Assembly (NCBI GenBank): GCA_964605355.1
Contig: CAZSCE010000008.1
Location: forward strand, 1 to 23,814
Length of the DNA stretch: 23,814 nucleotides
Source of the DNA: an uncultured Candidatus Saccharibacteria bacterium
GTDB taxonomy: Bacteria > Patescibacteriota > Minisyncoccia > Phycocordibacterales > GWA1-40-21
Reading direction: 5' to 3'
Below are positions 2,043 to 17,315 of this stretch, piece after piece. Within the stretch, counting starts at the first letter, position 1; each line of letters starts with the position of its first letter. Both the position numbers and the translations under genes were made by a program. The notes beneath the pieces were generated by a model. The model was not told the origin of the DNA and ran no database searches. It saw only the letters and a list, made by a program, of their open reading frames with translations.

Positions 2043-2571
2043 CATTAACACGCGAATCATTTCTTACATAAGGCTTGGTAAATTGAGCCTTTGGTATTTT
2101 AGTCAGCTTAGACCAAAAATTGATTATAGAAGGTGTATCTTGATTGGAATAACAATAAATGTATGCTCGAAGTTTCTTCTTATCAAAATTATATACGTCT
2201 CTAAAGGCTTTCATAAAAACCCGAACCATGACTGGATCACTATTAGCAAAATCAAATGTTCCCATTTTGCTGTTTTCATTTCCTTTAAAACCTTCACCCC
2301 AATAAAGCATCGCCAATATCGATTCTGCATAAGCCTTTCTTAATCCTTTAATACTCTTTCTTCTAAAAGTCATCTTTTTATTTTCAAAAGACCTTTTACT
2401 TGCCTCTTTAAAATCCCTCCTAGGGATATTGTATTTACGCATAGCATACGTTACTGCATCTATCGAGACATCAAAATATTTTGCCACATCAAGCATACAC
2501 TTACCCTCTTTTATATATAGGGCCTTGAGTTTAGTAATTTGATTTTTTGAAATTGCAGGCGTGTTCACCAC
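1930..2571 (-). CDS. Putative single-motif LAGLIDADG-type homing endonuclease with an N-terminal helix-turn-helix. Its stop codon lies inside the 5' end of tRNA-Tyr. The real start may be the internal Met near 2496.
   Basis: The motif ILAMLYWGEGF aligns to LAGLIDADG at the conserved L, A, L, acidic residue and G positions. It is followed by beta-rich segments (GTFDFANSD, LRAYIYCYSNQD, LINIKNLIE) typical of the I-CreI fold. The N-terminus (ITKLKALYIKEGKCMLDVAKYFDVSIDAVTYAMRKYNI) looks like an HTH. This is recalled motif similarity only. Confidence 0.45.
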   Translation of the reverse strand: MVNTPAISKNQITKLKALYIKEGKCMLDVAKYFDVSIDAVTYAMRKYNIPRRDFKEASKRSFENKKMTFRRKSIKGLRKAYAESILAMLYWGEGFKGNENSKMGTFDFANSDPVMVRVFMKAFRDVYNFDKKKLRAYIYCYSNQDTPSIINFWSKLTKIPKAQFTKPYVRNDSRVNARVMKHGLIHIRYHDKKLLINIKNLIECVCDKYAPVV

Positions 2572-2639
2572 CTAATAATAACAAAAACTACATTAGCTAG
2601 TCAAGCTAAAAAGTTCTACGTGCTACTGGCCTTGTCTTA

Positions 2640-2660
2640 CCCCTCCTTTCTTAGGAGGGG
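2640..2660 (-). terminator. GC-rich hairpin (cccctcc-tttctt-aggagggg) immediately downstream of clpB; probable transcription terminator or RNA-stabilising stem
   Basis: A perfect 8 bp inverted repeat lies 9 nt past the clpB stop. There is no strong U-tract, so terminator function is uncertain. Confidence 0.35.
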
Positions 2661-2668
2661 TCGCGTTC

Positions 2669-5341
2669 TTACGCGGGGGTGGTTTGGCGAAGCAAAGTTT
2701 GTATTTTTTTCTTCCCCTTCACCTCAAAAGTAAACTCGCCTTTTTTAAAATCAACGCTTACCACACCTCCGGCCATCACCCCACGAGAAATCATCAGGGA
2801 GGCAACAGGGTTAAGGATTTTTTCTTGAATCAAGCGCTTAAGAGGGCGGGCACCATATTGTGGATTATAACCTTCACGCGCTAAATAAGAAATAATTTCT
2901 TTACTAATTATTAATTTAATCTCTTTCTCCACCAAGCGCTTTCTAACAATATCTAATTGAATATCCACGATCTTGGCCACCGCCACTTCACTCAAAATAT
3001 CAAAAATAATAATATCATCCAAGCGGTTCAAAAATTCCGGACGGAAATTATCCTTCAGGGCCTTCATAACTTTCCCCTTCACATCTTCATACTCGGTCTT
3101 CTTAGTTTTATCCTGAGCAAAACCTATCTCCTCCATTTTATCAATATAATTAGCACCAATATTTGAAGTCATAATAATAACGGTGTTTTTAAAATTCACC
3201 GTGCGCCCTTTGGCGTCTGTCAGCCGGCCATTATCAAGCACCTGAAGTAAGATATTAAATACTTCTGGATGCGCTTTCTCAATTTCATCAAAAAGAATTA
3301 CCGAGTAGGGACGGTGCCGGACCATCTCCGTCAAATTACCCCCCTCTTCATAACCCACATAACCCGGCGGTGAACCAATCAGTTTTGAGACGGAATGACG
3401 CTCCATAAATTCTGACATATCCACGCGGATCAGAGCATTATCATCATCAAACATAAATTCTGCCAAAGCTTTGGTCAGCTCGGTTTTACCCACTCCGGTA
3501 GGTCCCAGAAAGATAAATGAGCCAATAGGCCTATTGGGGTCAGAAATACCCGCCCGAGAGCGTTTTACGGTGTCAGAAATCTTCTTAACAGCCACATCCT
3601 GGCCAATTATTCTTCTCTTAAGTTCATCATCCATCCGGCCCAATTTTTCCGCTTCTGCCTCAAGCATCCTGGTCACCGGCACTCCGGTCCAGCGGGAAAC
3701 AATATCAGCTATATCCTCCTCGCCAATTTCTTCCTTAAGCATTCGTCTGGAACTCTGTAAGTTCTTTAATCTTTTGGCTTTTATAACTAAATCTTTTTCC
3801 ATTAGTGGTATTGTGCCATAACGAATTTCCGCCGCCTTGGCCAAATCCACGCGCATTTCCGCCGCCTCGGCCTCTATCCGGGCCTGCTCCAAATTTTTCT
3901 TCAAAGTTTTTATTTCCGTAATAGTTTCCTTTTCATTTTTCCACTTCAATTCTATCTCCGCGGTTTTCTCCTTCAGATCTGCAATTTCTTTTTCAATTAT
4001 TTTTACGCGGGCCCGAGCCTTCTTCTCACCGCGCTCGGCTTCTTTTTTCAATGCCTCTTTTTCAATTTCCAAACGTAGCACTCTCCTATGTGTTTCCTCT
4101 AAAACTGGTGGCATATTTTCTAAAGAAATTTTTAACGAAGAAGAAGCCTCATCAATCAGATCCACCGCCTTATCCGGCAGGAATCTGTCAGTAATATACC
4201 TGGAGCTTAAATTTACAGAAGCCACAATAGCATCGTCAGTAATCCGAACGCCGTGATACAGTTCATATTTTTCTTTTAAGCCACGCAAAATAGCAATGGC
4301 ATCTTCCAAGGATGGCTCATTAACATACACGGTTTGGAAACGTCTGGTCAGCGCCGGATCTTTTTCTATCTTCTGATATTCTTTTATAGTAGTGGCGCCA
4401 ATAGTTCTAAATTCCCCTCGAGATAAGGCTGGTTTCAACATGTTCGAAGCATCCATGGATCCTTCTGCTGAGCCCGCCCCCACAATAGTGTGTATCTCAT
4501 CAATAAAGACAATTATTTTCCCCTCTGACCGCTCAATTTCTTTAATAATATTTTTTAAGCGCTCTTCAAATTCACCACGGTATTTAGTTCCCGCAATGAG
4601 CATCCCCATATCCAAGGAAACCAGTTCCTTATCCTTTAATGATTCTGGCACATCACCAGTGGACATCCGCAAGGCCAGGCCTTCTACAATAGCGGTTTTC
4701 CCCACGCCGGCTTCACCAATCAAGATCGGATTATTCTTAGTGCGCCTGGATAGTATTTGGATAATTCTACTTATTTCCGTATCACGGCCAATCACCGGAT
4801 CAAGTTTATTTTCCTTGGCCAATTTAGTTAAATTCCGTGTATATTTGGAAATAGCTTTATATTTTTTTATTGTTGGCGCTTCACCCACATTATTTGTTTT
4901 AAATTCTTCCAAAATACTTACTACTTTTATACGGTCAATCTTAAAACGGGTGAGCATATCTCGGGCCGGACTAGTGGTATCCAGCACACTAATAAATAAA
5001 TGCTCAGTAGAAATAAATTCATCTTTTAGCTCACGGGCTATTTTCCCGGACGCTTCTATCACTTGGGCCAGATCCGGTGTTAAATATATTTGCATGGCGG
5101 GTGAGGAAATATTTGTCCCGGGATTTATATTATCAATAACCTCCAGTAAGGAATCAGTCAGCAATACTATATCAATCTCTAATCTCTCCAAAATAGATGA
5201 AACTATACTTTCCTCTTGCATAATAAGAGCCAGGAGAAGGTGGGTAGGGTTTACGTGATTTTGTCCACGCTCAATAGCCAGCTCGTGAGCGCGCTTTATC
5301 ACTTCCTTGGCCTTGGTTGTAAAATTATTAAATGGCGGCAT
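2669..5341 (-). CDS. clpB: ATP-dependent chaperone/disaggregase ClpB (two AAA+ modules with a long coiled-coil M-domain)
   Basis: N-terminal Clp repeats are present. Walker A motifs are GEAGVGKTAIVEGLA (NBD1) and GPTGVGKTELTKALA (NBD2). A ~120-aa coiled-coil M-domain lies between them, and the C-terminal domain is also present. 890 aa. Confidence 0.92.
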   Translation of the reverse strand: MPPFNNFTTKAKEVIKRAHELAIERGQNHVNPTHLLLALIMQEESIVSSILERLEIDIVLLTDSLLEVIDNINPGTNISSPAMQIYLTPDLAQVIEASGKIARELKDEFISTEHLFISVLDTTSPARDMLTRFKIDRIKVVSILEEFKTNNVGEAPTIKKYKAISKYTRNLTKLAKENKLDPVIGRDTEISRIIQILSRRTKNNPILIGEAGVGKTAIVEGLALRMSTGDVPESLKDKELVSLDMGMLIAGTKYRGEFEERLKNIIKEIERSEGKIIVFIDEIHTIVGAGSAEGSMDASNMLKPALSRGEFRTIGATTIKEYQKIEKDPALTRRFQTVYVNEPSLEDAIAILRGLKEKYELYHGVRITDDAIVASVNLSSRYITDRFLPDKAVDLIDEASSSLKISLENMPPVLEETHRRVLRLEIEKEALKKEAERGEKKARARVKIIEKEIADLKEKTAEIELKWKNEKETITEIKTLKKNLEQARIEAEAAEMRVDLAKAAEIRYGTIPLMEKDLVIKAKRLKNLQSSRRMLKEEIGEEDIADIVSRWTGVPVTRMLEAEAEKLGRMDDELKRRIIGQDVAVKKISDTVKRSRAGISDPNRPIGSFIFLGPTGVGKTELTKALAEFMFDDDNALIRVDMSEFMERHSVSKLIGSPPGYVGYEEGGNLTEMVRHRPYSVILFDEIEKAHPEVFNILLQVLDNGRLTDAKGRTVNFKNTVIIMTSNIGANYIDKMEEIGFAQDKTKKTEYEDVKGKVMKALKDNFRPEFLNRLDDIIIFDILSEVAVAKIVDIQLDIVRKRLVEKEIKLIISKEIISYLAREGYNPQYGARPLKRLIQEKILNPVASLMISRGVMAGGVVSVDFKKGEFTFEVKGKKKIQTLLRQTTPA

Positions 5342-5404
5342 AAATATAAATTCAAATTACTACAAATTCATCATAGCAGACTGGGCGGAAAATTCAAATA
5401 GAAA

Positions 5405-6271
5405 TTATATAGTACCTATTTCTTTCTTTAAGAGATTAGAAGGTAAATAATTATATAAAGTAGAAACGGTTGAACCAACCTTAATCCCCACCACCTCACC
5501 ATAAAGGTTTAATAACGGCCCACCGGAAATAATATCAACTAAATTCACATTGGTATTTATAGCCACAATTTCTCTAGGGGCTATAGCCGTACTGGTAGCG
5601 GTGCTAGAAGCATTCGCCGCCCTGCCCTCCACATCTACCAGGCTGGAAACAATACCGGTAGAAACAGAATTCTGTGTTTGCCCTCCCCAAGCAATAACTG
5701 TTTGACCAAGTTTGAGAGCATTAGAATCAGAAATGGTGACCGAGGTAAAAGTAACAAGATTTTTTTCATCTTGAATAACTTTTAGGAAATAAAATTGACT
5801 ACCTTCTTTTCTAGGTAAAATACTCACATTATAAAACTTGGCATTATCCAAGGTTACCTGATATTTTCCGCGCAGATCAGCAAAAACATCCCCGGTCACA
5901 ATTAAACCTTCTTTGGAAACTATCGTCCCTAAACCAATAAATGTTCGCTCAGCTACATCACCGGAATTTTCCATATCAGTATAAATTCTGACAATACTGT
6001 TTTTATTTTTATCTACAGACTCCACAATTTTATCATCCTCCTTTACCACCACAGTTTCTCTGGTGATTACAGCGGCGGCATTATTATTTGTTGGCGGAGT
6101 AACAATTTTTTCTATGGTTCTTTCTACCACGCGGTTAATAGTTTGGGTCACGCCGGCTGGAGCCTGGTCCATCAGCGCCACAGTCACAATTCCGGTGGCA
6201 ATAGAAGTCACAAAACTCACAAGTAGAGTCACAAGTACTATCTGTTGTTTTGTAAGTTTTTCCATATCCAT
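5405..6271 (-). CDS. Membrane-anchored trypsin-like (HtrA/DegP S1C family) homolog that lacks the catalytic histidine; probable pseudoprotease
   Basis: N-terminal TM helix (IVLVTLLVSFVTSIATGIVTVALM). The C-terminal DIISGGPLLNLYGEVVGI matches the GNSGGPL serine-box region of HtrA-type proteases. The 288-aa translation contains no His residue at all. Confidence 0.55.
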   Translation of the reverse strand: MDMEKLTKQQIVLVTLLVSFVTSIATGIVTVALMDQAPAGVTQTINRVVERTIEKIVTPPTNNNAAAVITRETVVVKEDDKIVESVDKNKNSIVRIYTDMENSGDVAERTFIGLGTIVSKEGLIVTGDVFADLRGKYQVTLDNAKFYNVSILPRKEGSQFYFLKVIQDEKNLVTFTSVTISDSNALKLGQTVIAWGGQTQNSVSTGIVSSLVDVEGRAANASSTATSTAIAPREIVAINTNVNLVDIISGGPLLNLYGEVVGIKVGSTVSTLYNYLPSNLLKKEIGTI

Positions 6272-6310
6272 ATCTGTATTATAGAACTAATTTAAGGAAA
6301 AGCAAGTATT

Positions 6311-7576
6311 TTAATTAAAGTTTTTATTCATTTGCTTTTGAACCAGTTTTTTCAAAGTTAAAACTACAAAATTCAGGTCTTTTTGGGTAATATTCTCAGA
6401 TAAAGAAAAGCGTAGTGTAGATTTTGCTAAATTATCACCATGACCAAGGGCGCGAACTACAAAAGAACCGTCATCATCATGAGAGCAAGCACTTTTTGTA
6501 GAACAGACAATCCCCGCCTCATCTAAACATAAAACAATAAATTCTGAATCAATACCCGGAATAGAAATATTTAAATTATTCGGCAAACGATTTTCTAAAT
6601 CACCGTTTAAAACCGCTTCTGGAATTTCCTTCTGAATTTTTTGCCAGAAGTAATTACGTAAGGACACCAAGGAGAGACCTTTTTTCCGATTTAAGGTCTC
6701 ACCTTGGTAACTTTTTCTAGCTAATTCAAGCGCCTTAGCCTGACCAACTATCAGTGGCACATTCTCAGTCCCGGAACGAAGGCCTTTTTCTTGCCCACCC
6801 CCAAAAATAATGGGGGACATTTCCACATCGCTCTTTTTAAATAAAATACCCACCCCCTTTGGGCCGCCCATTTTCTGGGCATCCAGGGTCATCATATCTA
6901 CTCCTAATTCATTTACATTTAAATTCAAATATGATCCGGCCTGACTAGCATCCGTATGAAAAATTGGAAATTTAAAAGAAAAATCCTCAGAATTTTCTTT
7001 TAAATTTCTCGAGTTTTTTTGAGCATGACGAACTTCTTTGGCAATTTCCCGAATTGGCTGGACCGTGCCTATTTCATTATTGGCATACATAATAGACACC
7101 AGAACAGTATTTGGCTTTATTAATTTTCTCAATTCCCTGGGATTTACAATTCCGTTTGATTGTACTTTCAAATAATCTACTTTGGCTCCCCTTCTCTCCA
7201 GTTCCTTATAACATTCTGTGACAGAGCTGTGCTCAATATTGGAAGTAATAAAATGTAAATCAGTAATCCTCTTACTCTCCTCCTTTTCTAGGGAGGAGTG
7301 GCGAGTCTTCGAGACGAGGTGGTTCACTAAACCAAAAATGGCTAAATTATTTGACTCCGTCCCGCCGGAAGTAAAAATAATTTCCTGAGGTCTTCTCATT
7401 AAACAATCAGCCACTATTTTTCTGGAATTCTCCACTGCTTGTTTAGCCCTTACCCCTATTTTAGTAATGGAACCAGGGTTGCCAAAACTTTCACTCCAAA
7501 ACGGCTTCATGGCCAAAACAACCTCCGGCCGAACCGGGGTGGTGGAAGCATTATCTAAATAAATCACTTTTCTCAT
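6311..7576 (-). CDS. Cysteine desulfurase (class V aminotransferase, IscS/NifS family)
   Basis: MRKVIYLDNASTTP...FTSGGTESNNLAI is the NifS/IscS N-terminal signature. TLDAQKMGGPKGVGILF is the PLP-lysine region. CSTKSAC is the active-site Cys loop. Confidence 0.85.
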   Translation of the reverse strand: MRKVIYLDNASTTPVRPEVVLAMKPFWSESFGNPGSITKIGVRAKQAVENSRKIVADCLMRRPQEIIFTSGGTESNNLAIFGLVNHLVSKTRHSSLEKEESKRITDLHFITSNIEHSSVTECYKELERRGAKVDYLKVQSNGIVNPRELRKLIKPNTVLVSIMYANNEIGTVQPIREIAKEVRHAQKNSRNLKENSEDFSFKFPIFHTDASQAGSYLNLNVNELGVDMMTLDAQKMGGPKGVGILFKKSDVEMSPIIFGGGQEKGLRSGTENVPLIVGQAKALELARKSYQGETLNRKKGLSLVSLRNYFWQKIQKEIPEAVLNGDLENRLPNNLNISIPGIDSEFIVLCLDEAGIVCSTKSACSHDDDGSFVVRALGHGDNLAKSTLRFSLSENITQKDLNFVVLTLKKLVQKQMNKNFN

Positions 7577-10170: not shown

Positions 10171-10740
10171 ATGCCCAAAAAAAGAAAGTGGACAGAAAAT
10201 AATTTAAGACAGGCCGTCATTTCATCAACAAGTATGAGACAGGTACTTGGTAAAATTGGCCTAATTCAAGCTGGGGGAAATTATAATCAAATAAAAAAAT
10301 ATATTAAAGATCTAAAGATTAATATCACACACTTTAAAGGAAAGGGGTGGAACAAAGGAATGACTGGTATTGGTAAGCCAAGGATATGTATAGAAAATAT
10401 TTTGGTAAATAATAGTGATTTTCAAAGTTATAAATTAAAAAATAGACTTTTTGAAATTGGGCTTAAAAATAAGAAGTGCGAGGAGTGTGGCTGGAAAAAA
10501 ATATCAAAAGATGGTAGACTACCACTTGAACTAGACCATATAAATGGAGACAGCCGGGATAATAGAATTGAAAACCTTAGAATTCTTTGTCCAAATTGTC
10601 ATAGTTTAAAATTGACACATAGAGGGAAAAATAGAAAAAGCTCGGGTGGCGGAATTGGTATACGCGCAACACTTAAAATGTTGTCTGCGAAAGCGGATGC
10701 GGGTTCGACTCCCGCCCCGAGCACAGGGAGTGTAATTTAA
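10171..10740 (+). CDS. Free-standing HNH homing endonuclease (phage/Firmicutes-type). The ORF has no stop before entering tRNA-Leu(UAA), so its 3' 100 nt overlap the tRNA.
   Basis: The HNH core KCEECGW...PLELDHINGDSRDNRIENLRILCPNCHS is present. The N-terminal WTENNLRQAV...GGNYNQIKKYIKDLKINITHF module recurs in this endonuclease family. Confidence 0.85.
   Translation: MPKKRKWTENNLRQAVISSTSMRQVLGKIGLIQAGGNYNQIKKYIKDLKINITHFKGKGWNKGMTGIGKPRICIENILVNNSDFQSYKLKNRLFEIGLKNKKCEECGWKKISKDGRLPLELDHINGDSRDNRIENLRILCPNCHSLKLTHRGKNRKSSGGGIGIRATLKMLSAKADAGSTPAPSTGSVI
10640..10723 (+). tRNA. tRNA-Leu (UAA), type II
   Basis: gctcggg-tg-gcgg-aattggtat-acgc-g-caaca-cuUAAaa-tgttg-long variable arm (ctgcg aaa gcgga)-gcggg-ttcgact-cccgc-cccgagc-a. 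Confidence 0.8.
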
Positions 10741-10754
10741 CAATAGAATAATAT

Positions 10755-10827
10755 CCGCCCATAGCTCAGCTGGTAGAGCAGATCCCTCTTAAGGATAAGG
10801 TCGTAGGTTCGATCCCTACTGGGCGGA
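10755..10827 (+). tRNA. tRNA-Lys (CUU)
   Basis: ccgccca-ta-gctc-agctggta-gagc-a-gatcc-cuCUUaa-ggata-aggtc-gtagg-ttcgatc-cctac-tgggcgg-a. There is one G-A mismatch at the top of the anticodon stem. Confidence 0.8.
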
Positions 10828-10845
10828 CACGAAGTGCGGCACAGA

Positions 10846-10869
10846 AAAAGTGCTGGGAGCACTTTTGTT
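10846..10869 (+). terminator. Rho-independent terminator after tRNA-Lys
   Basis: The hairpin aaaagtgct-ggga-gcactttt has a 9 bp stem and is followed by gtt. Confidence 0.65.
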
Positions 10870-10991
10870 AGGGAGCGAAGCCTGTTTGAGATTTTTTAAA
10901 GTTTCTGAACGAATAAAAAATCCAAACACGGATACTGGTTCTGTAAGAACCGATTCCCTACATATTCGTGGTGACATGCAAACGTGTTATT

Positions 10992-11072
10992 GGGCGAGTG
11001 GTGAAACGGTAGACACGCTAGCCTTAGGAGCTAGTGCCGCAAGGCATGGAGGTTCAAGTCCTCTCTCGCCCA
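10992..11072 (+). tRNA. tRNA-Leu (UAG), type II
   Basis: gggcgag-tg-gtg-aaacggtaga-cac-g-ctagc-cuUAGga-gctag-variable arm (tgccgcaaggcat)-ggagg-ttcaagt-cctct-ctcgccc-a. Confidence 0.8.
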
Positions 11073-11083
11073 CAAAACTTAAA

Positions 11084-11120
11084 CCAAATGTGACTTCAGG
11101 AGACATTTGGTTTTTTGTTT
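11084..11120 (+). terminator. Rho-independent terminator after tRNA-Leu(UAG)
   Basis: The stem ccaaatgt(11084-11091)/acatttgg(11103-11110) has an 11-nt loop and is followed by tttttt. Confidence 0.6.
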
Positions 11121-11198
11121 TGGGCGGTGAGGGAGGACTTGAAAACCTTTGATAGTTTTATAAAATGTATTCATTTAAGAAAACAGAAAAGGTGTACA

Positions 11199-11234
11199 GA
11201 TCCTGTAAGGATCAAGATTCCTCTCTCGCCCACA
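11199..11234 (+). other. tRNA-like remnant. It has an anticodon-arm-like hairpin (gatc-CUGUAAG-gatc) fused to a T-arm-like segment, and its last 22 nt (tcaag..attcctctctcgcccaca) duplicate the 3' end of tRNA-Leu(UAG). This looks like an att-site scar.
   Basis: The 16-nt string tcctctctcgcccaca occurs at 11059-11074 (the tRNA 3' end) and again at 11219-11234. No D-arm or 5' acceptor strand is present, so it is not a functional tRNA. Confidence 0.6.
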
Positions 11235-11237
11235 TTT

Positions 11238-11263
11238 AAAAACACCCTTTTAGGGGTGTTTTT
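11238..11263. terminator. Bidirectional intrinsic terminator (aaaaacaccc-ttttag-gggtgttttt)
   Basis: A 10 bp stem flanked by an A-run and a T-run. It sits between the tRNA block (+) and the convergent minus-strand gene ending at 11278. Confidence 0.65.
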
Positions 11264-11277
11264 AAAATATAGACAAA

Positions 11278-11562
11278 TTAGGCAGCAATATCTAAATCCT
11301 CTCTCGTTTTCAATAATCTTCCTAAATCCTTTACCTCATTTTCTGCCCCCTTGAGAATATCAAGGGTATCCTTCGTATCCTCTATTATATCTGAACTAAT
11401 ATTATTCATAGTGGTTACTTCATTTAAAATATTCCCTACCTCCCCAACTACTGCGCTATCTACCTGCTCGTCAATTAAAGGTTTATCAAACAAGGCATCA
11501 ATGTCGCTTCTTACTATTTTACCGAATTCCTCTTTGGCTTTTTGTTTTTTATCATCAGTCAT
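11278..11562 (-). CDS. Small acidic hypothetical protein (94 aa)
   Basis: The ORF is intact and lies 7 nt downstream of the preceding gene. It is D/E-rich. No recognisable family. Confidence 0.45.
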   Translation of the reverse strand: MTDDKKQKAKEEFGKIVRSDIDALFDKPLIDEQVDSAVVGEVGNILNEVTTMNNISSDIIEDTKDTLDILKGAENEVKDLGRLLKTREDLDIAA

Positions 11563-11569
11563 ATTATTA

Positions 11570-12766
11570 TTATTCTAAATTAGCTAATATCCTGTTAATT
11601 AAAATAACTTTAATCCTACTTTGTGGGTCATTACTGGTCTGTAATTGTTTTATTTTATTTTTAAGACCTCCCGCTATTTGTTCATCGCATTCCTTAGCAT
11701 CCAACCCTAAATCCAAACCCCTCTTTCTCATCATATCAATCCCCTTTTCAAAAGTATTAAGAGTAGCCCCTTCTTTACTTTCAACTAGTTCACTAACATC
11801 ATATCCTACCTCGCCTTTAGCAAAACCGATAAGTCTTTTTTGTATAGCCTCAAATTGATCATCATCAAGAATACTTTCATTTCCTCTCATTCTTTCAAAA
11901 ACTACTCTATTTTTAGCTAGAGGCTTGTAATCCAAACTATCACCAGCTTGTTTCATTCTTTCCTGAGCTTTTTTATGAAATTCGTTCTTAAGAACTTCAA
12001 ATATCTCATTTCCTTTTAGACTTTCCCTAATACCCTTGATCTGCTGTAAAGTGTCAACTATAGACTTTTGATCCAGTTTTTCTCTGTCTACCTTTAACCC
12101 GGCTATAGTCTGCTGAAGGCTACTTCTTTTGGCCCTGAATTCTGTTCTAGCTTTGGTAGAAAAATGAGTTAATATACCTCTATTTTTTTCTGTATCTGAT
12201 AGTTTGGTCTCAATGTCACTTTTTAATTTGGAAAAGTTTAATTGCACATCCCTGACAAATTTAATTTTCTCATCTGTAGTTAATTTGCTGTAATCAACAC
12301 TCATTTCAAGCTGTTTAGCTGTTTCCTGATATACTCCCTCTAAAGCCTTGTTTCTTTCTGTTGCTTCTAAATAAGCAACTATCCTTTTTGAAAACTTACC
12401 TAATTCTTCAGGATTTTTAATAGCTACGCCCTCTAAACTATCCATAAAGGGTCCCTCCACCACATCGCCAAAATCAGTACTGGATTCAGTAACTATAAAT
12501 TTTTTAACCTCATTTTTAATTCCTTGTATTGTATCAAAAGTGGCAATCTTTTCTCTTAAGTAATTATCATCACTAGCGTTATCAGTGGCATCAGGATTTT
12601 TTTGCAAAAAATTTAAAAACTTTGGATCGTTTAATCTTTTTTTTATCTCTTCATCTTGCTTGGCTTTATTCTCCTTTGCTTCTGTTTCTGCTTTTTCAGA
12701 ACCACCTTCCTCTACTTCTCCACTCATATCCTTTTTTTTCTCGGGATGTCTTAATATAAATGACAT
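11570..12766 (-). CDS. Coiled-coil hypothetical protein (398 aa) of unknown function
   Basis: Long intact ORF whose translation is K/E/Q-rich and predicted mostly helical or coiled coil. There is no TM segment and no recognisable catalytic motif. Confidence 0.5.
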   Translation of the reverse strand: MSFILRHPEKKKDMSGEVEEGGSEKAETEAKENKAKQDEEIKKRLNDPKFLNFLQKNPDATDNASDDNYLREKIATFDTIQGIKNEVKKFIVTESSTDFGDVVEGPFMDSLEGVAIKNPEELGKFSKRIVAYLEATERNKALEGVYQETAKQLEMSVDYSKLTTDEKIKFVRDVQLNFSKLKSDIETKLSDTEKNRGILTHFSTKARTEFRAKRSSLQQTIAGLKVDREKLDQKSIVDTLQQIKGIRESLKGNEIFEVLKNEFHKKAQERMKQAGDSLDYKPLAKNRVVFERMRGNESILDDDQFEAIQKRLIGFAKGEVGYDVSELVESKEGATLNTFEKGIDMMRKRGLDLGLDAKECDEQIAGGLKNKIKQLQTSNDPQSRIKVILINRILANLE

Positions 12767-13014
12767 TATTTTTTATTTAATTAATTAATAAAATATGACA
12801 CATCTATTACAATTATATAGAACTAAAAAAATTAAAGCAAATCATTCAAAATACCTTTACTTTATATAGGTATTTTGATGATGAAAATACTTGACTTTTA
12901 GTATGAAATATGCTAGTATTAATAACAGAAAGAAACCTGCTCTTTGACAGGTTTGGAAACAAATAATGTTAGTTAATGTCAGTGCGCCCGCAGGCGCAGA
13001 AAGGTAGGAGTGGG

Positions 13015-14109
13015 ATGAAAAAGTTCGTAGTCGTTGGATTCTTCATGGCGATATACATCGCCTTGGGGTATCTTGATTTCTGTTTAATTACGGACAAGGT
13101 ATCCATAGATACTGGGAACGCCTGGAACTGGGGGTGGATCATCGCTTCGATGCAGATGGTTTACTTTGTCCTAAGTTTCAGGACGGTTGGACCAACAGAA
13201 TTAGGGGCATTGCTCCTATTTGGTCGACCTATGTTTGAGGTCGCATCTGGTCTAGTCTTTGCTCCTTTTGTAATTTGTCAATTACGCACTGAGACAGCTC
13301 TTGTCGTACAAAAACAAATTCCTGGAGAGCCAGAGGAAATAGATCGGATGGCAGATAGCGAAACTCCAATTCAGAAAGGAAAGGTCCTTCCAATTAGAAT
13401 ACTAACAGGGACAGCAAAAAGAGCAGATAAGGAATATCCTGCTGATGCCGCCCTTGTTAATGGGGATCCTTTGCATAAGCAAATGACAGTTGAGGCAACG
13501 GCCCAAGTTCGCATGCAAATTAGGGATTACCTTAGGTTCCTGAAAAACATCGGTAGCATATCTTCAGCCATGAAACAACTTCGAGATACAGCTGAGGGTG
13601 TCCTTAAGCTCGAATTTGCGTCAAGAACTCCGGCATTGATTCCAGCGCATTGGGGAGCAATCAATACTGCATTTGAAGCTAAGATTAATGCAATTGTAGT
13701 ATCATGGGGTGTTGACGTTCATGGAGCTCAACTAATAGACGTTGACCTTACAAAGACTGTCAATAAAGGCCTCCGAGATGCGTTGAATAGTAGTTTACTT
13801 AAGGAGGCCATTATCAAGACCGCTGAAGCAGAAAAAGAAAAAAGGATACTTGAGGGACAGGGTGACGCATCAGCTCAACTGAGCCTGCTCACAGCGCAAG
13901 CAGAAGGAAAGGCAAAGTTGGCGGCCATCGCAAAGACAAAGGGTGGCAGGTATGCTATGGCCCTCGAAACCGCGAGCAAAACGGTGGAAAGTGCGGATTA
14001 TAGCATTGTTGGAACTGATGGAATTTCTGGAGCCATTGCAGCAGCGATGGAAACCATGAAGAAGGTCCATAGTCCTGACAAGCCGGCTAAAGCAAAGAAA
14101 GGGGGCTGA
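13015..14109 (+). CDS. SPFH/band-7 (stomatin/HflK-like) membrane protein. The start is reassigned to ATG 13015, which follows AGGAG, rather than the ORF-track start at 12976.
   Basis: N-terminal TM helix. FGRPMFEVASGLVFAPFVICQLRTETALVVQ matches the stomatin N-terminal core. WGVDVHGAQLIDVDL plus AEAEKEKRILEGQGDASAQL...AEGKAKLAAIA is the typical SPFH C-terminal helical region. GC content here is clearly higher than in the surrounding sequence. Confidence 0.7.
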   Translation: MKKFVVVGFFMAIYIALGYLDFCLITDKVSIDTGNAWNWGWIIASMQMVYFVLSFRTVGPTELGALLLFGRPMFEVASGLVFAPFVICQLRTETALVVQKQIPGEPEEIDRMADSETPIQKGKVLPIRILTGTAKRADKEYPADAALVNGDPLHKQMTVEATAQVRMQIRDYLRFLKNIGSISSAMKQLRDTAEGVLKLEFASRTPALIPAHWGAINTAFEAKINAIVVSWGVDVHGAQLIDVDLTKTVNKGLRDALNSSLLKEAIIKTAEAEKEKRILEGQGDASAQLSLLTAQAEGKAKLAAIAKTKGGRYAMALETASKTVESADYSIVGTDGISGAIAAAMETMKKVHSPDKPAKAKKGG

Positions 14110-14110
14110 C

Positions 14111-14773
14111 ATGCTGCCATATCCTGTAATGATTGGTTTGGCAGTGATGGTAATCTACCTGGCGTGGCAGGCCATAGAAAGTGTGCGGGCAGGAAAACCA
14201 AAAAAACCTCTACCTGAGAAGGAGGAAGGCGACAAGAAGAAAGGTGACGTCGCACCCCCTAAAAAGGGCTTCAGTAGGTGGGTGGTGTTTTGGGTAGTGG
14301 TGCTGCTGGCAATGGCGATAGTTCTGACCTGGGGGTTTTCAACCTCTTGGGGTGGTAAGTCTGCGGTGCAGGCAGCACTGAATAGACAGACAACAAACCC
14401 ATCAACAGTCAGGCCCCCAGCGCGGACGTTTGACTACCGCTCGGAGGATGACCCAATAGAAGGAAATGAGTACAAAGACTCACCCAAGGCTCGCGCCATG
14501 ATGATTGGTGAGGATGATGACTCATGGTCCTTCCGGGTGTATTACGAAGTGGGTACTCCGGACGTAAAAAGTCCGCAAACAGCCGAGAGCTGTTTCCTGG
14601 TTCTAAAGCCCAACAAAGAAAAGAGGCCTGGGCGCTGGAGCAGGGACAACCCAAAAAGCGGTGGTTATGTCAAACTCAAGAAGGAGCAACCAATAGTTGG
14701 TGGCTACTGCCTGGAGATTGGCAATGACGAGGCGCCGGGGGCAAAAAGAGATGTGTATCTCTACCCTAGATAG
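14111..14773 (+). CDS. Two-TM membrane protein of unknown function, translationally coupled to the SPFH gene (stop TGA, one nucleotide, then ATG)
   Basis: Two hydrophobic helices (MIGLAVMVIYLAW and WVVFWVVVLLAMAIVL) are followed by a soluble beta-rich C-terminal domain. It shares the elevated GC and may be an NfeD-like partner of the SPFH protein, which is a hypothesis only. Confidence 0.5.
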   Translation: MLPYPVMIGLAVMVIYLAWQAIESVRAGKPKKPLPEKEEGDKKKGDVAPPKKGFSRWVVFWVVVLLAMAIVLTWGFSTSWGGKSAVQAALNRQTTNPSTVRPPARTFDYRSEDDPIEGNEYKDSPKARAMMIGEDDDSWSFRVYYEVGTPDVKSPQTAESCFLVLKPNKEKRPGRWSRDNPKSGGYVKLKKEQPIVGGYCLEIGNDEAPGAKRDVYLYPR

Positions 14774-14873: not shown

Positions 14874-15200
14874 TTATTTTCCACTAATTGTCCCCATAAT
14901 CAAATTAATTATTCCGTAGGCCGCCACCATAATAAAGAATCCCATCACTCCCCACAGCATATTCATGCCTCCTTTTTTCCTCTCTTCAGAACTCTCAGCA
15001 TTTTTCACAAACTGAAATACCCCCCAGAGAAAATAGATAACGGCTACAGCCACCATAAGAGCAATAACAGGATTCACGATATTTACTATAATATTCTTAA
15101 TCAAAATATTGTAATCCCCTATTGGTGTAGCCCCACCGCTAACTGAGGTGGGCCAGGCCACCTTATCAGCATATGCTTTTTTAATAAGTTCGGGAAGCAT
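14874..15200 (-). CDS. Small two-TM membrane protein, paralog 1 of a VirB2/TrbC-like pilin family; no signal peptide
   Basis: Hydrophobic helix (VIALMVAVAVIYFLWGV), charged loop (KNAESSEERKKGG) and second helix (MLWGVMGFFIMVAAYGIINL). This layout is shared with the five upstream paralogs. Confidence 0.5.
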   Translation of the reverse strand: MLPELIKKAYADKVAWPTSVSGGATPIGDYNILIKNIIVNIVNPVIALMVAVAVIYFLWGVFQFVKNAESSEERKKGGMNMLWGVMGFFIMVAAYGIINLIMGTISGK

Positions 15201-15212
15201 TAGTAAATATTA

Positions 15213-15566
15213 TTAGGGAAGAAGTCTGGTCACATTACCGGCACCGGTGGTATTAACACCAAAGAGACCCTGTAATATAGCCACCAAGCCCCAAATGGAC
15301 ACAATAACGGCTAGAGAGATAATACCTAGGATCATTTGATTCTTGGCCTTATCCTTTGCGTCTTCATCAGCTGACATAGCATAACGAATAACATTCCAGA
15401 TAAACCACACTACCGCTAGGGCGATAAGAAACACCACTAATTGGTCCAAAAGGGCTTTGGCGCTACCAATAAGAGACTGTAGATAAGTTGTGTTCACTGT
15501 TTGAGCAAAAGCCATAAAAGGCAATGCCCAAGCTGCTCCCGCGATGATTTTAACTGCTTTTTTCAT
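15213..15566 (-). CDS. VirB2/TrbC-like pilin paralog 2, with a signal peptide and two TM helices; start chosen at MKKAVKII
   Basis: Signal peptide MKKAVKIIAGAAWALPFMAFA is followed by LVVFLIALAVVWFIWNV, the loop SADEDAKDKAKNQ, and MILGIISLAVIVSIWGLVAIL. Confidence 0.55.
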   Translation of the reverse strand: MKKAVKIIAGAAWALPFMAFAQTVNTTYLQSLIGSAKALLDQLVVFLIALAVVWFIWNVIRYAMSADEDAKDKAKNQMILGIISLAVIVSIWGLVAILQGLFGVNTTGAGNVTRLLP

Positions 15567-15642
15567 TTTTTTCTTGATTAATCCCACTTTGCATAAAGCT
15601 TCGCAGGACAAGATTAATAAATTAATAAATTAATAAATACCT

Positions 15643-16128
15643 CTAATAGTTTTGTGGTGGTGGTGCCTGACGTGGAAGAAATGGTGATGGCGCTCCAGTA
15701 GAAGGATTAATATATGCTGCTGTCCCATTAGGTGGGTAGGAAGTTGGAGCGACCGTCACCCCAGGAATCATATTATTAATACTATTTGGTGCGCCTTCAT
15801 TACTATCAACCCCAAAAGCGTTTCTTAATAGACCCACAATACCCCAGATAGAAACCATGACAGCAATAGCAATAATACCATTTATCATTTGTGTTCTGGC
15901 CTTGTCCTTGCCATCTTCCTCTGAGGACATTGAATATTTTGTGACATTCCAGATAAACCAAACTACAGCTAAAGCAAAAAGAAAGATTATAATATTATTA
16001 AGAAGACTTTTCCCACTATTAATGGCACCGCCTAAATAATCAAGATTTACCTGTGTCCCCGCGGCCATAACCAAAACCGGCAAACCAAGAGTGATAACTG
16101 AACCTAAACTAATTAATATTTTTTTCAC
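15643..16128 (-). CDS. VirB2/TrbC-like pilin paralog 3, with a Pro/Ser/Thr-rich C-terminal tail
   Basis: Close paralog of the previous gene: FLFALAVVWFIWNVTKYSMSSEEDGKDKARTQMINGIIAIAVMVSIWGIVGLL. It carries an extra PTSYPPNGT...PPPQNY tail. Confidence 0.55.
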   Translation of the reverse strand: MKKILISLGSVITLGLPVLVMAAGTQVNLDYLGGAINSGKSLLNNIIIFLFALAVVWFIWNVTKYSMSSEEDGKDKARTQMINGIIAIAVMVSIWGIVGLLRNAFGVDSNEGAPNSINNMIPGVTVAPTSYPPNGTAAYINPSTGAPSPFLPRQAPPPQNY

Positions 16129-16212
16129 AATTTTGTAAATTTAATTTTTAAACTACGACCTTTGATATTTTTACCTTATAATTATACCTTTTTACATTAA
16201 AATCAGCAATTA

Positions 16213-16500
16213 CTATTTTGGTGGTGTTATTTGGATAGTTTTTGGGGTGGTATTCAAATTAAAAGTGCCAGAGACAACAGCCACCAGTCCCCAAAGGGAA
16301 ACCATCACAAAAATACCAATAATCCCCCACAACATATACTGCTTGCCCTCTTCCTTCTTCTCCCCACCCTCAGAGAACATAAGAATAAGAACACCGTATA
16401 AAAATACCACCACAGCTAGGCCAATTAAAAGTGGCACAATTGGCGCTAATATTTTACCAATAAACACCTGCTCCACTAAATCTTTAAAATTGGTTATCAT
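16213..16500 (-). CDS. VirB2/TrbC-like pilin paralog 4 (no signal peptide)
   Basis: LLIGLAVVVFLYGVLIL, the loop SEGGEKKEEGKQY, and MLWGIIGIFVMVSLWGLVAVV. Confidence 0.5.
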   Translation of the reverse strand: MITNFKDLVEQVFIGKILAPIVPLLIGLAVVVFLYGVLILMFSEGGEKKEEGKQYMLWGIIGIFVMVSLWGLVAVVSGTFNLNTTPKTIQITPPK

Positions 16501-16521
16501 TATATTTTATTATTTATTAAT

Positions 16522-16878
16522 TTATCTTGCTCCGGTAGTAACTTTTACTGTACCTATTACCACATTAGCAATAACATCAGCGCCTAAGAGAATGGCTCCA
16601 CCAATAATTGTGGCATAAAACATATCCTTGGCCTTTGATACTTCTGATTCATTACCTTGAGCCATAACAAATTTAAAACCGGAGTAAATTATAAAGAAAA
16701 CTACCACCACCCCACCAACTTTAGCCACTAAATCCATAAGGCTACCCACAATCCCCCTCACGTCATTTGATTTCAAGGGATTATTTATAGTAGTATCAGC
16801 AGCAAAAAGAATAACCGGTACTAATAATAAAAATAATGAAACTATAGATGGTAGATATTTTTTATAATTTTTTTTCAT
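16522..16878 (-). CDS. VirB2/TrbC-like (Gram-positive T4SS-type) pilin paralog 5
   Basis: Signal peptide is followed by VAKVGGVVVVFFIIYSGFKFVMAQGNESEVSKAKDMFYATIIGGAILLGADVIANVV. This is the canonical layout of a signal peptide, a helix, a short K/E loop, and a second helix. Confidence 0.6.
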   Translation of the reverse strand: MKKNYKKYLPSIVSLFLLLVPVILFAADTTINNPLKSNDVRGIVGSLMDLVAKVGGVVVVFFIIYSGFKFVMAQGNESEVSKAKDMFYATIIGGAILLGADVIANVVIGTVKVTTGAR

Positions 16879-16880
16879 AT

Positions 16881-17315
16881 TTATTTTAAGAATTTAAAAA
16901 TTCCTGGTGTACCAGTATCTGATGTGTCTACTAATATATTTAATATTGTATAAACTATCAACCAGGCTGTAAGTATTATAACAAACCCCATCAAAGTAGA
17001 CCAGAGAAGGCTTTTTGCTTTATCTTTATTACCTGGCTTTTCCCCAGAGGTCATATATAGAAAACCACCCCAAATAGCCGAGATGGTAAATATCACCCCA
17101 GCAATACTGATAATCCAATTAATAATTCTATTAATTAAACCTATGAACTCAGGAAATTTGCAAGGTACTGCATATGGGCCCGTTCCTGACAAGCCGCAGC
17201 GAATCAATGGCGTATAAATATTTTCAGCAATAGAGATAACCGGTAAAATAAAAACAAAGAGCAAAATTATGGAAGTCAGGCTGGCGAGAAATTTTTTATT
17301 TAATAAATGTGACAT
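16881..17315 (-). CDS. VirB2/TrbC-like pilin paralog 6, with a Cys pair in the pre-helix region
   Basis: Signal/TM segment is followed by IRCGLSGTGPYAVPC, then IISIAGVIFTISAIWGGFLYMTSGEKPGNKDKAKSLLWSTLMGFVIILTAWLIV. Confidence 0.55.
   Translation of the reverse strand: MSHLLNKKFLASLTSIILLFVFILPVISIAENIYTPLIRCGLSGTGPYAVPCKFPEFIGLINRIINWIISIAGVIFTISAIWGGFLYMTSGEKPGNKDKAKSLLWSTLMGFVIILTAWLIVYTILNILVDTSDTGTPGIFKFLK

Follow-up and report, generated by a model that had tools for sequence, protein, structure and literature searches.

The tRNA-Leu(UAG) gene's 3' end is repeated a short distance downstream of that gene in the 23,814-nt stretch of an uncultured Candidatus Saccharibacteria genome analyzed here (contig CAZSCE010000008.1, hereafter the window). 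The original prediction read this repeat as the scar of an excised or deleted island. We find instead that a small, conserved hairpin cassette ends, on its 3' side, in the downstream copy. The cassette core is a module of about 115 nt that consists, in order, of an inverted copy of the tRNA end, AAAA, a long hairpin (P2), GTAC, a second hairpin with a UGUAA loop (P3), and the direct copy that was first noticed (Table 1). The interval that had been taken for a scar is thus a conserved, covarying module, which recurs at near-constant spacing behind at least six tRNA species in dozens of related contigs.

The repeat itself is much as it had been described. The window contains exactly two occurrences of the 16-mer TCCTCTCTCGCCCACA, one closing tRNA-Leu(UAG) (11059–11074) and one at 11219–11234, compared with 0.08 matches expected by chance and two or more copies in 0 of 100 shuffled sequences. 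No further copy is present in the window, even with three mismatches allowed. Both 16-mers are preceded by TCAAG (11054–11058 and 11212–11216), but in the second copy a 2-nt AT insert (11217–11218) splits the two parts, and hence the reported 22-nt duplication, while real, comprises 21 shared bases with one 2-nt indel. Identity extends from the T loop to 2 nt beyond the discriminator base, which is the shape of a tRNA attachment-site (att) duplication. The two copies are about 145 bp apart, and the terminator that had been placed between them is present as a terminator-like hairpin followed by a T run (T1). An independent Logan assembly (L003, SRR12261227) is identical to the window over 11036–11578, which rules out an artefact of assembly. 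A third, partial echo (TCCTCTCTCGTTTTCA) lies at 11297–11312, 78 nt past the second copy, with its first 10 nt exact and 75% identity overall; it sits in the 3' end of an open reading frame (ORF) on the reverse strand (11278–11562) and may be either a decayed older copy or a chance match.

When read as a repeating unit of about 160 bp, the sequence runs from one tRNA 3'-end copy through T1, the inverted copy (IR-L), AAAA, P2, GTAC, and P3 to the next tRNA 3'-end copy (IR-R). The hairpin ahead of the second copy had been called anticodon-like; a hairpin is indeed present, but it is not derived from a tRNA and is the conserved P3 of the recurrent module. Repeat and module scans also revealed two features absent from the original prediction, namely the inverted copy and a second module of the same family, located between tRNA-Lys and tRNA-Leu(UAG). 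In this Lys module, IR-L is TTAGGGAGCGAA (10868–10879), P3 is GGTTC-TGTAA-GAACC (10937–10951), and IR-R is GATTCCCTAC (10952–10961), the last being an echo of the tRNA-Lys T arm, TCGATCCCTAC. Just beyond the Leu module lies a palindrome (T2), apparently a bidirectional terminator that the convergent ORF at 11278–11562 shares.

Table 1. Features of the tRNA-Leu(UAG) cassette and its surroundings, in window coordinates.
Feature	Position	Strand	Description and support
tRNA-Leu(UAG)	10992–11073	+	Intact, CCA not encoded; ARAGORN; Rfam tRNA 57.6 bits
Repeat copy 1	11054–11074	+	TCAAG + TCCTCTCTCGCCCACA: T-loop 3' half, T-stem 3' strand, acceptor 3' strand, discriminator A, 2 trailer bases; repeat family D1
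T1	11081–11117	+	Terminator-like hairpin (arms 11081–11091 / 11103–11113) + T run; tip of a 91-nt near-palindrome, 11053–11143
IR-L	11119–11143	+	Inverted degenerate copy of the tRNA 3' end (TTTGGGCGGTGAGGGAGGACTTGAA); 25 nt, 80% complementary (pair I1)
Covariance-model match, Leu(UAG) module	11132–11228	+	cmsearch model R1, 93.7 bits, E 1.4e-20
P2	11145–11193	+	Long AT-rich hairpin; basal pairs covary (CCTT/AAGG versus GGTT/AACC among copies)
GTAC junction	11194–11197	+	Between P2 and P3; TAC invariant across family alignments
P3	11199–11213	+	Hairpin GATCC-TGTAA-GGATC with conserved UGUAA loop; compensatory changes in 6/6 modelled pairs
Repeat copy 2 (IR-R)	11212–11234	+	TCAAG-AT-TCCTCTCTCGCCCACA; 3' strand of closing helix P1
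T2	11235–11266	.	Perfect 13-bp palindrome (11235–11247 / 11254–11266), A run + T run; repeat scan (pair I2)
Second module of the same family	10868–10966	+	Behind tRNA-Lys(CUU) (10755–10828); cmsearch 68.4 bits, E 3.2e-14

The inverted copy has two alternative partners, the tRNA end across T1 and the downstream copy (helix P1), since both folds are predicted. On its own, 11119–11234 is predicted to form a three-way junction closed by pairing of IR-L with IR-R (−39.3 kcal/mol, z −4.3), while the tRNA end, T1, and IR-L together (11053–11143) are predicted to form a 91-nt hairpin (−51.2 kcal/mol, z −9.5). In the predicted minimum-energy fold of 10992–11270, the 5' acceptor and T-stem strands of the tRNA pair with the downstream copy and the native 3' end pairs with IR-L, so that the modelled topology is that of a tRNA carrying an insertion of about 160 nt in its T loop.

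The module belongs to a family that is spread among related Patescibacteria. The related sequences compared here (given L numbers) are contig fragments rather than whole genomes. A search pattern derived from the modules of the window and of L008 matched 23 metagenome contigs, a set that is accordingly ascertained with a Leu-type pattern. In these contigs, the module lies, singly or doubled, directly behind tRNA-Leu(UAG) or, in L030 and L041, behind tRNA-Leu(CAA). A covariance model (R1) built from 16 modules gave 51 matches at E ≤ 1, of which about 45 reach E ≤ 1e-3, in the 28 related sources searched; the matches follow genes for tRNA-Cys, Leu(UAA), Leu(UAG), Leu(CAA), Lys, and Trp. Scanning all loci for TAC-N-G followed by a TGTAA-loop hairpin returned 52 sites, 42 of which have a same-strand tRNA upstream, and adds tRNA-Tyr and tRNA-Asp, which brings the range to at least six tRNA species, or eight when the motif-scan cases are counted. 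In the 23.8-kb window, the same scan finds only two sites, both behind tRNAs. The module starts about 60–90 nt behind the tRNA gene, a near-constant spacing, and in the motif scan, the P3 hairpin lies 113–151 nt past the tRNA end or at multiples of an array period. At E ≤ 1e-3, every covariance-model match is preceded by a tRNA except for one beside gyrA in L038 and copies in L023 that have lost their tRNA. The segment between the two repeat copies (11075–11211), which the original prediction had wanted tested for occurrence elsewhere as a mobile mini-element, does occur elsewhere, as a module behind many tRNAs.

The ends of the module follow the local tRNA. Past P3, the sequence always repeats the cognate tRNA's T-loop 3' half and T-stem 3' strand, with a longest exact match to the cognate tRNA end of 9.4 nt on average, compared with 5.0 nt for non-cognate tRNA types; retention of the acceptor strand ranges from complete to lost. 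Within eight genomes chosen only through their IF-2 sequence, a direct echo of at least 10 nt accompanies 7/43 tRNAs, always at +135 to +157, whereas an upstream echo of this length accompanies 0/43. The core is separable from the tRNA, because the instance beside gyrA closes with unrelated sequence. This orphan core (L038, 3345–3435, + strand, 37 bits) sits directly past the stop codon of an 836-aa gene, whose length and C-terminal sequence lead us to regard it as gyrA, with no tRNA nearby and CCAGAAT/ATTCTG as its closing helix.

We refer to the core found in the window as type B and to that found at the same site in L004 as type A. Type A and variants carrying AGTCGAGG or GTACTCNCGG represent other core flavours built on the same flanking principle. 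Other core types occur at L004 11816–11925, L013 12596–12722, L022 2680–2860, and L008 1–253 (reverse strand), and share the flanks, in which the local tRNA end is present once inverted and once direct. The conserved elements of type A are GCCGGAA, TATGAG, and GCGGGGTNGC-hairpin-GTGACC, and a further flavour carries GACAAAACTTTTTGACGAAAAAGTTTTAGTCGAGG. Some type-B copies have an extra small hairpin with a UACU loop at a bulge, and the echo in L013 ends in CCA, unlike its gene.

Both RNAalifold and a structure-fitted alignment support P1, P2, and P3. Paired cells make up 93.4%, compensatory changes are found in 13/14 modelled pairs, and the covariation score is 0.537, compared with 0.163 in shuffles (0/500 as high) and 0.04–0.13 for slid partners, although these figures are flattered because the alignment was fitted to the structure. 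In P3 alone, each position shows four or five different Watson–Crick pair types. The invariant bases are GAA after P1, UAC at the junction of P2 with P3, and the UGUAA that forms the P3 loop, and in two L025 copies, the first and last bases of this loop change jointly from U..A to C..G. In P2 and P3 together, only 3 G.T and 4 A.C occur in 429 cells (G.U 0.7%), compared with 73 G.U in 1465 pairs (5%) of the tRNAs at the same loci (n = 68; Fisher p 8e-6); as the sequences are related, both the shuffle statistics and the Fisher test overstate independence. The helices are thus nearly pure Watson–Crick and strand-symmetric, with no strand clearly preferred, the tRNA-sense strand folding 1.9 kcal/mol better on average. 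Conservation of structure beyond sequence in an imperfect palindrome is also what characterizes folded-DNA recombination sites of the integron attC type and of integrative mobile elements exploiting Xer (IMEX).

The same site in relatives holds different things. At tRNA-Leu(UAG), L004 (IF-2 85% identical) carries a type A core with a 20-nt echo of its own, differing tRNA end, and L013 (IF-2 52%) carries type A with a 19-nt echo. In type A, the identity block is contiguous (20 nt in L004 and 19 nt in L013), and it runs from the T loop to 1–3 nt past the tRNA end, again an att-like geometry. In L008, two distinct type-B subtypes stand in tandem, each with an echo of that contig's acceptor sequence (GCGCGGG type); L021 carries only the distal of these subtypes, while L022 and the window carry only the proximal one. 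L012 holds what looks, from its sequence, like an internally deleted remnant of type A, and L006, L009, and L014 have neither cassette nor echo at the site. The comparison at tRNA-Leu(UAG) that the original prediction had proposed thus returns different cassette types, a tandem, a remnant, or nothing. Copy number varies as well: near-identical strains have one or two Leu cassettes and one to three Lys cassettes, with periods of 147–170 bp. The proximal copy of an array scores well above the distal one in L038 (105 versus 30 bits), L019 (97 versus 39), and L020 (66 versus 26), and somewhat above it in the Lys array of L025 (71 versus 62).

Any explanation has to cover the att-like geometry, the tracking of the tRNA, the constant spacing, the shared non-tRNA core, the turnover, the arrays, and the Watson–Crick helices. 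The reading that we tentatively favor, at somewhat less than even confidence, is a non-autonomous hairpin cassette of DNA for which the segment of the tRNA gene from the T loop to the 3' end is the place of insertion or exchange. We count toward it the differing site states in relatives, the tracking of the local tRNA by the echo, the att-like geometry, the arrays, the Watson–Crick helices, the instance beside gyrA, and the lack of an Rfam match. The original prediction had offered a miniature non-autonomous element as one option, and this part of it still gives the best fit, with mobility a supposition. On such a mechanism, the intact tRNA end would stay beside the gene, and a displaced copy would remain distal to the cassette as the direct repeat that was noticed first. 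Tandem arrays would arise by repeated insertion or by unequal exchange between the repeats, and where the copies are clearly unequal, the distal copy would be the degraded one. The hairpins would be the structure recognized by a trans-acting recombinase or nuclease, acting on a cruciform or on folded single-stranded DNA. We infer mobility, action at the level of DNA rather than RNA, and the enzyme alike.

Several observations weigh against a mobile DNA cassette. Type-B copies are not simple crossover products, because a 1–2-nt insert stands between their T-loop and T-stem parts. The core is conserved across lineages whose IF-2 proteins are about 40–50% identical, which would also fit a host function, and the comparison of G.U frequencies rests on related, non-independent sequences. 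Better preservation of the proximal copy lends the reading only weak support, since it is clear in 3/8 arrays and reversed in L008 (86.5 proximal versus 98 distal bits); the L023 array is slightly reversed (71.7 versus 77.8), and the Leu pair of L025 and the pair of L030 are equal. Changes in array copy number could stem from ordinary unequal recombination between repeats. No pair of empty and filled alleles with identical flanks was recovered among the relatives. T1, just past the tRNA, is orthologous in the window, L004, and L012 despite their different cores, and a shared T1 with differing cores fits cassette exchange or homologous recombination as well as it fits site-specific insertion. 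No recombinase, transposase, or integrase was found in or adjoining the cassettes, and none of the 25 most frequent of the 57 Pfam families matched by 66 module-neighboring ORFs is a recombinase. Finally, neither an excised form nor an autonomous parent turned up, nor did any viral or plasmid copy, plasmid and whole-genome collections not having been searched with the module.

The strongest competitor, which we consider possible but less probable, is a structured trailer RNA that is co-transcribed with the tRNA, either by read-through of T1, a weak hairpin, or as a spacer in the Cys-Leu-Lys-Leu operon, and that would have a role in 3' processing, termination, or stability, or in switching between folds. 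On this account, the likeness of the copy to the tRNA comes from a shared need to pair with one inverted segment. The module does always lie on the tRNA strand at a near-constant distance, and the Lys module stands between two co-oriented tRNA genes. Single sequences consistently give a predicted three-way junction, including that of the window module at the energy given above, and the modelled full-transcript fold makes two competing folds available. The strong covariation, the invariant junction and loop bases, the slightly better folding of the tRNA-sense strand, and the conservation of the core across distant lineages are all consistent with an RNA, and the UGUAA loop would fit U-N-N-R-A, the T-loop motif pattern. 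What speaks against an RNA is the near-absence of G.U pairs and the strand symmetry of the helices, unlike the tRNAs of the same loci. The module is, moreover, patchy among close relatives, core types replace each other at one tRNA, and the arrays contain degenerate extra copies. At many loci, T1 and its T run lie upstream of the module and would stop most transcripts before it was reached, and the closing helix does not need the intact acceptor strand and trailer bases that are seen in seemingly young copies.

An improbable third account is that of a passive by-product, in which template switching (quasipalindrome formation) duplicated the tRNA end and the terminator and keeps them matched, with neither mobility nor function. 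The tRNA end, T1, and the inverted copy do form long, near-perfect palindromes, with arms of about 37 nt that are almost perfect in L033 and a highly stable predicted hairpin in the window, and strand-symmetric helices with Watson–Crick pairs only would be expected from it. In L025, the palindrome partner follows the pseudo-acceptor, not the tRNA, where the two differ. Such a process nonetheless leaves unexplained the conserved non-tRNA core, GAAAA-P2-GTAC-P3-UGUAA, behind at least six tRNA species and once behind gyrA, as well as the invariant loop and junction bases, the compensatory changes, and the constant spacing.

The reading from which the analysis started, that the copies are attL and attR of an integrase-bearing island or prophage at tRNA-Leu(UAG) that has since been mostly deleted, with a foreign SPFH block, is now very unlikely. 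It has the direct repeat from T loop to tRNA 3' end in its favor; the region from tRNA-Leu(UAG) to a downstream pilin gene array does differ between relatives; GC content rises to 0.52 at 13800–14700, compared with about 0.38 elsewhere in the window; and elements with large serine recombinases do adjoin tRNA 3' ends in this group (at tRNA-Tyr in the window, 264–2042, and in L023/L026). An att pair is thus right as far as an intact tRNA with a displaced 3' fragment is concerned, but no integrase or element remnant was found in the bracketed DNA. There is no credible gene in 11075–11218, the overlapping ORFs at 10850–11152 and 11115–11354 having no Pfam match, and no recombinase near the repeat, the only one in the window being 9 kb away at tRNA-Tyr. 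The interval is instead a conserved module of the same length at many tRNAs, and the viral contigs scanned with the 21-mer of the tRNA end, the 25-mer of the copy, and the module pattern gave 0 matches. This recurrence, together with the covariation, largely refutes the island scar.

The neighboring genes do not suggest an island boundary either. The window encodes a short, 496-aa IF-2, RbfA, and six tandem PF18895 pilin genes of the type IV secretion system (T4SS), a content that fits Patescibacteria, also known as the Candidate Phyla Radiation (CPR). The backbone ClpB...IF-2-RbfA-tRNA(Cys, Leu-UAA, Lys, Leu-UAG)-[2–4 kb]-pilin array-SBP-methyltransferase-GyrA is kept in relatives. Downstream of the repeat, 11278–14773 of the window encodes o94 and o398 (neither with a Pfam match), an SPFH/Band-7 protein, and a 220-aa membrane protein (o220). 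The SPFH block had been suspected of being foreign DNA with the repeat at its edge, but it lies outside the two copies, the order o94-o398-SPFH-o220-pilin array is kept in L022/L040 (o94-o398 also in L012), and neither a repeat copy on the far side nor an adjacent integrase was found in the window. Compared with L022/L040, the o94, o398, SPFH, and o220 proteins are 28–53% identical while IF-2 is 83% identical, which suggests that the segment is fast-evolving but syntenic despite its rise in GC, and possibly surface-related. Exact-protein look-ups of RbfA and o398 gave matches from the same strain only.

Hardly credible, finally, is a decayed tandem duplicate of tRNA-Leu, which the original prediction had named as what would overturn it, or a chance match: the copy does include the acceptor 3' strand and the discriminator, but two copies never arose in the shuffles, ARAGORN and Rfam (E up to 10) find no tRNA-like match in 11075–11234, and the part upstream of the copy is the P2-GTAC-P3 core that is common to the modules of tRNA-Lys, Cys, and Trp and to the instance at gyrA.

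A number of specific candidates were also considered and rejected. The module matches no known RNA family: in Rfam 15, nothing but tRNAs was matched at gathering score in the window and 13 related loci, and when 10980–11290 was scanned permissively (E up to 10), the sole matches were spurious ones to microRNA hairpins that scored far below threshold. Hammerhead and hairpin ribozymes were rejected as the junction strands GAAAA / UAC / AAGA are unlike catalytic cores, and transfer-messenger RNA (tmRNA), permuted or not, as ARAGORN finds none and the acceptor is Leu-like rather than Ala-like. A retroviral-type primer-binding site does not fit, the inverted copy matching the gene and its trailer and not a CCA-ended mature tRNA, nor does a T-loop intron, the first 3' copy already giving a canonical tRNA and many downstream copies lacking the acceptor strand. 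A promoter within the module (TTGAAA-16-TAAAAT, 10/12 in the window) was rejected as its −10 element is not conserved in other copies.

Other features of the window and its relatives deserve mention in their own right. The PF18895 T4SS-pilin array consists of six tandem paralogues (14874–17315, − strand), is kept in all relatives, and adjoins an SBP_bac_1 gene. The large serine recombinase ORF at 264–2042 (+ strand; 592 aa, with Resolvase, Recombinase, and Zn-ribbon domains) abuts tRNA-Tyr (1862–1944, − strand), reading antisense through that tRNA. Divergence from relatives without the recombinase gene begins right past the discriminator (GCGCACA|GACTAGG). L012 has a 95%-identical recombinase at the same place, where the flanking core genes are just 80–87% identical, which suggests that the recombinase element recently spread at the tRNA-Tyr 3' end; no second tRNA-Tyr end was found within 4.2 kb at the far side of the element in L012. 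Between tRNA-Cys and tRNA-Leu(UAA), an HNH endonuclease ORF (10171–10740, + strand), whose frame spans the whole tRNA-Leu(UAA) gene (10640–10724), looks like a free-standing homing endonuclease in the tRNA cluster; it is found in the window, L008, and L012 only (frameshifted in L012) and is absent from L004, L006, L009, and L010. In L023 (about 730–6680) and L026, two independent contigs, a segment of about 6 kb replaces tRNA-Leu(UAG) and a rhodanese-domain gene when compared to L025 (7790–9146). The products of this segment are a large serine recombinase of 409 aa, a PrgI-family and a NUDIX protein, and an unknown protein of 812 aa. No tRNA remains with the Leu modules, the tRNA end is the site of one junction (..GCACAAAG), and host sequence makes up the final 19 codons of the recombinase ORF.

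The cassettes resemble several known systems; att duplications and CIME accretion, described below, and by analogy attC/IMEX folded sites and REPINs, are precedents for the favored reading. Two published accounts describe how, in tRNA-borne islands and prophages, a regenerated gene and a displaced fragment mark the ends of the inserted DNA (PMC4383910; PMC9897764). As with the attL/attR pairs of such islands (Islander-type; the T-loop sublocation class of Williams 2002), there is an intact tRNA and a direct repeat from the T loop to just past the 3' end. Here, however, the bracketed DNA measures about 145 bp and is gene-less, no integrase was found, and what lies between is a conserved hairpin module rather than a residue. 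The tRNA end is also present in inverted form within the module, a 1–2-nt insert marks the type-B copies, and a single core serves many tRNA species with ends matched to each. In cis-mobilizable elements (CIMEs), the integration and transfer genes are lost while attL and attR are kept, and new arrivals integrate at the att site that carries the gene end, leading to tandem decayed elements (PMC5704250). CIMEs are kilobase-scale decayed integrative and conjugative or integrative and mobilizable elements (ICEs/IMEs) with recognizable parents, whereas the cassettes measure 147–170 bp and are structurally conserved, and no parent was found: nothing pointing to an autonomous ICE, IME, or prophage came from the viral contigs or from the 25 most frequent Pfam families of the neighboring ORFs.

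Integron attC sites and Xer-exploiting elements (IMEX, such as the CTX phage) recombine as folded single-stranded DNA. They are imperfect palindromes whose structure is kept beyond sequence, the folded stem recreating a target-like duplex, and their integration regenerates the target and permits tandem arrays. The cassettes differ in that their target is the T-arm/acceptor segment of a tRNA and in that they carry no ORF, and single-stranded recombination would apply to them purely by analogy. Repetitive extragenic palindromic (REP) sequences and their composites, the bacterial interspersed mosaic elements (BIMEs) and REPINs, are short extragenic hairpins behind genes that are mobilized by REP-associated tyrosine transposases (RAYTs), occur as paired inverted units, and may act as terminators or stabilizers as a side-effect. 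REPINs and the module share a conserved tetranucleotide beside the hairpin (GTAG in the former, GTAC in the latter). REPINs, however, have constant ends and scattered intergenic sites, whereas the module ends change with the neighboring tRNA and nearly all instances are tRNA-linked; the constant terminal inverted repeats and dispersed sites of REPINs and of miniature inverted-repeat transposable elements (MITEs) are not seen in the module. As in tRNA-linked RNAs (the tRNA-like domain of tmRNA, YrlA-type Y RNAs, and 3'ETS-leuZ, from an external transcribed spacer), the sequence would adjoin, or derive from, the transcript of a tRNA, its closing helix being like an acceptor/T stem and its pentaloop possibly like a T loop. 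Unlike them, the module is patchy and has no Rfam match, no intact T loop, and hardly any G.U pairs, and ARAGORN finds no tmRNA.

The module is thus an att-like duplication of a tRNA end that is carried by a gene-less, structured mini-cassette, and no earlier description of it was found in Rfam or in limited full-text literature searching. It has no integrase as an island att pair would, no parent as a CIME would, and no constant ends as a MITE or REPIN would, and it is not a tRNA pseudogene. Stated more specifically, and regarded as less likely than not, these would be an undescribed class of tRNA-templated hairpin cassettes of Patescibacteria, each a unit of about 150 bp whose ends repeat the 3' strand of the tRNA that it follows, one inverted and one direct, and close a conserved three-way junction. 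Such a cassette would serve either as a folded-DNA attachment site at which a recombination system specific for tRNA ends makes and swaps cassettes lacking genes, in the manner of integrons or IMEX, or as an RNA switch, the trailer and the tRNA body contending for the tRNA 3' strand.

Short repeats of tRNA ends are routinely taken as island boundaries, and at tRNA-Leu(UAG), such a reading would mislead. For annotation, the modules give rise to spurious calls of att sites and of tRNA fragments, and they show where the 3' flanks of tRNA genes are prone to recombination. The RNA biology of the CPR is unusual, with group I introns in tRNA and rRNA genes (PMC13011429). If the modules are RNAs, they would form a new class of tRNA-linked structured RNA in this phylum. 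If they are mobile, the cassettes would be among the smallest site-specific elements known and would point to an as yet unrecognized recombination activity in bacteria with very reduced genomes.

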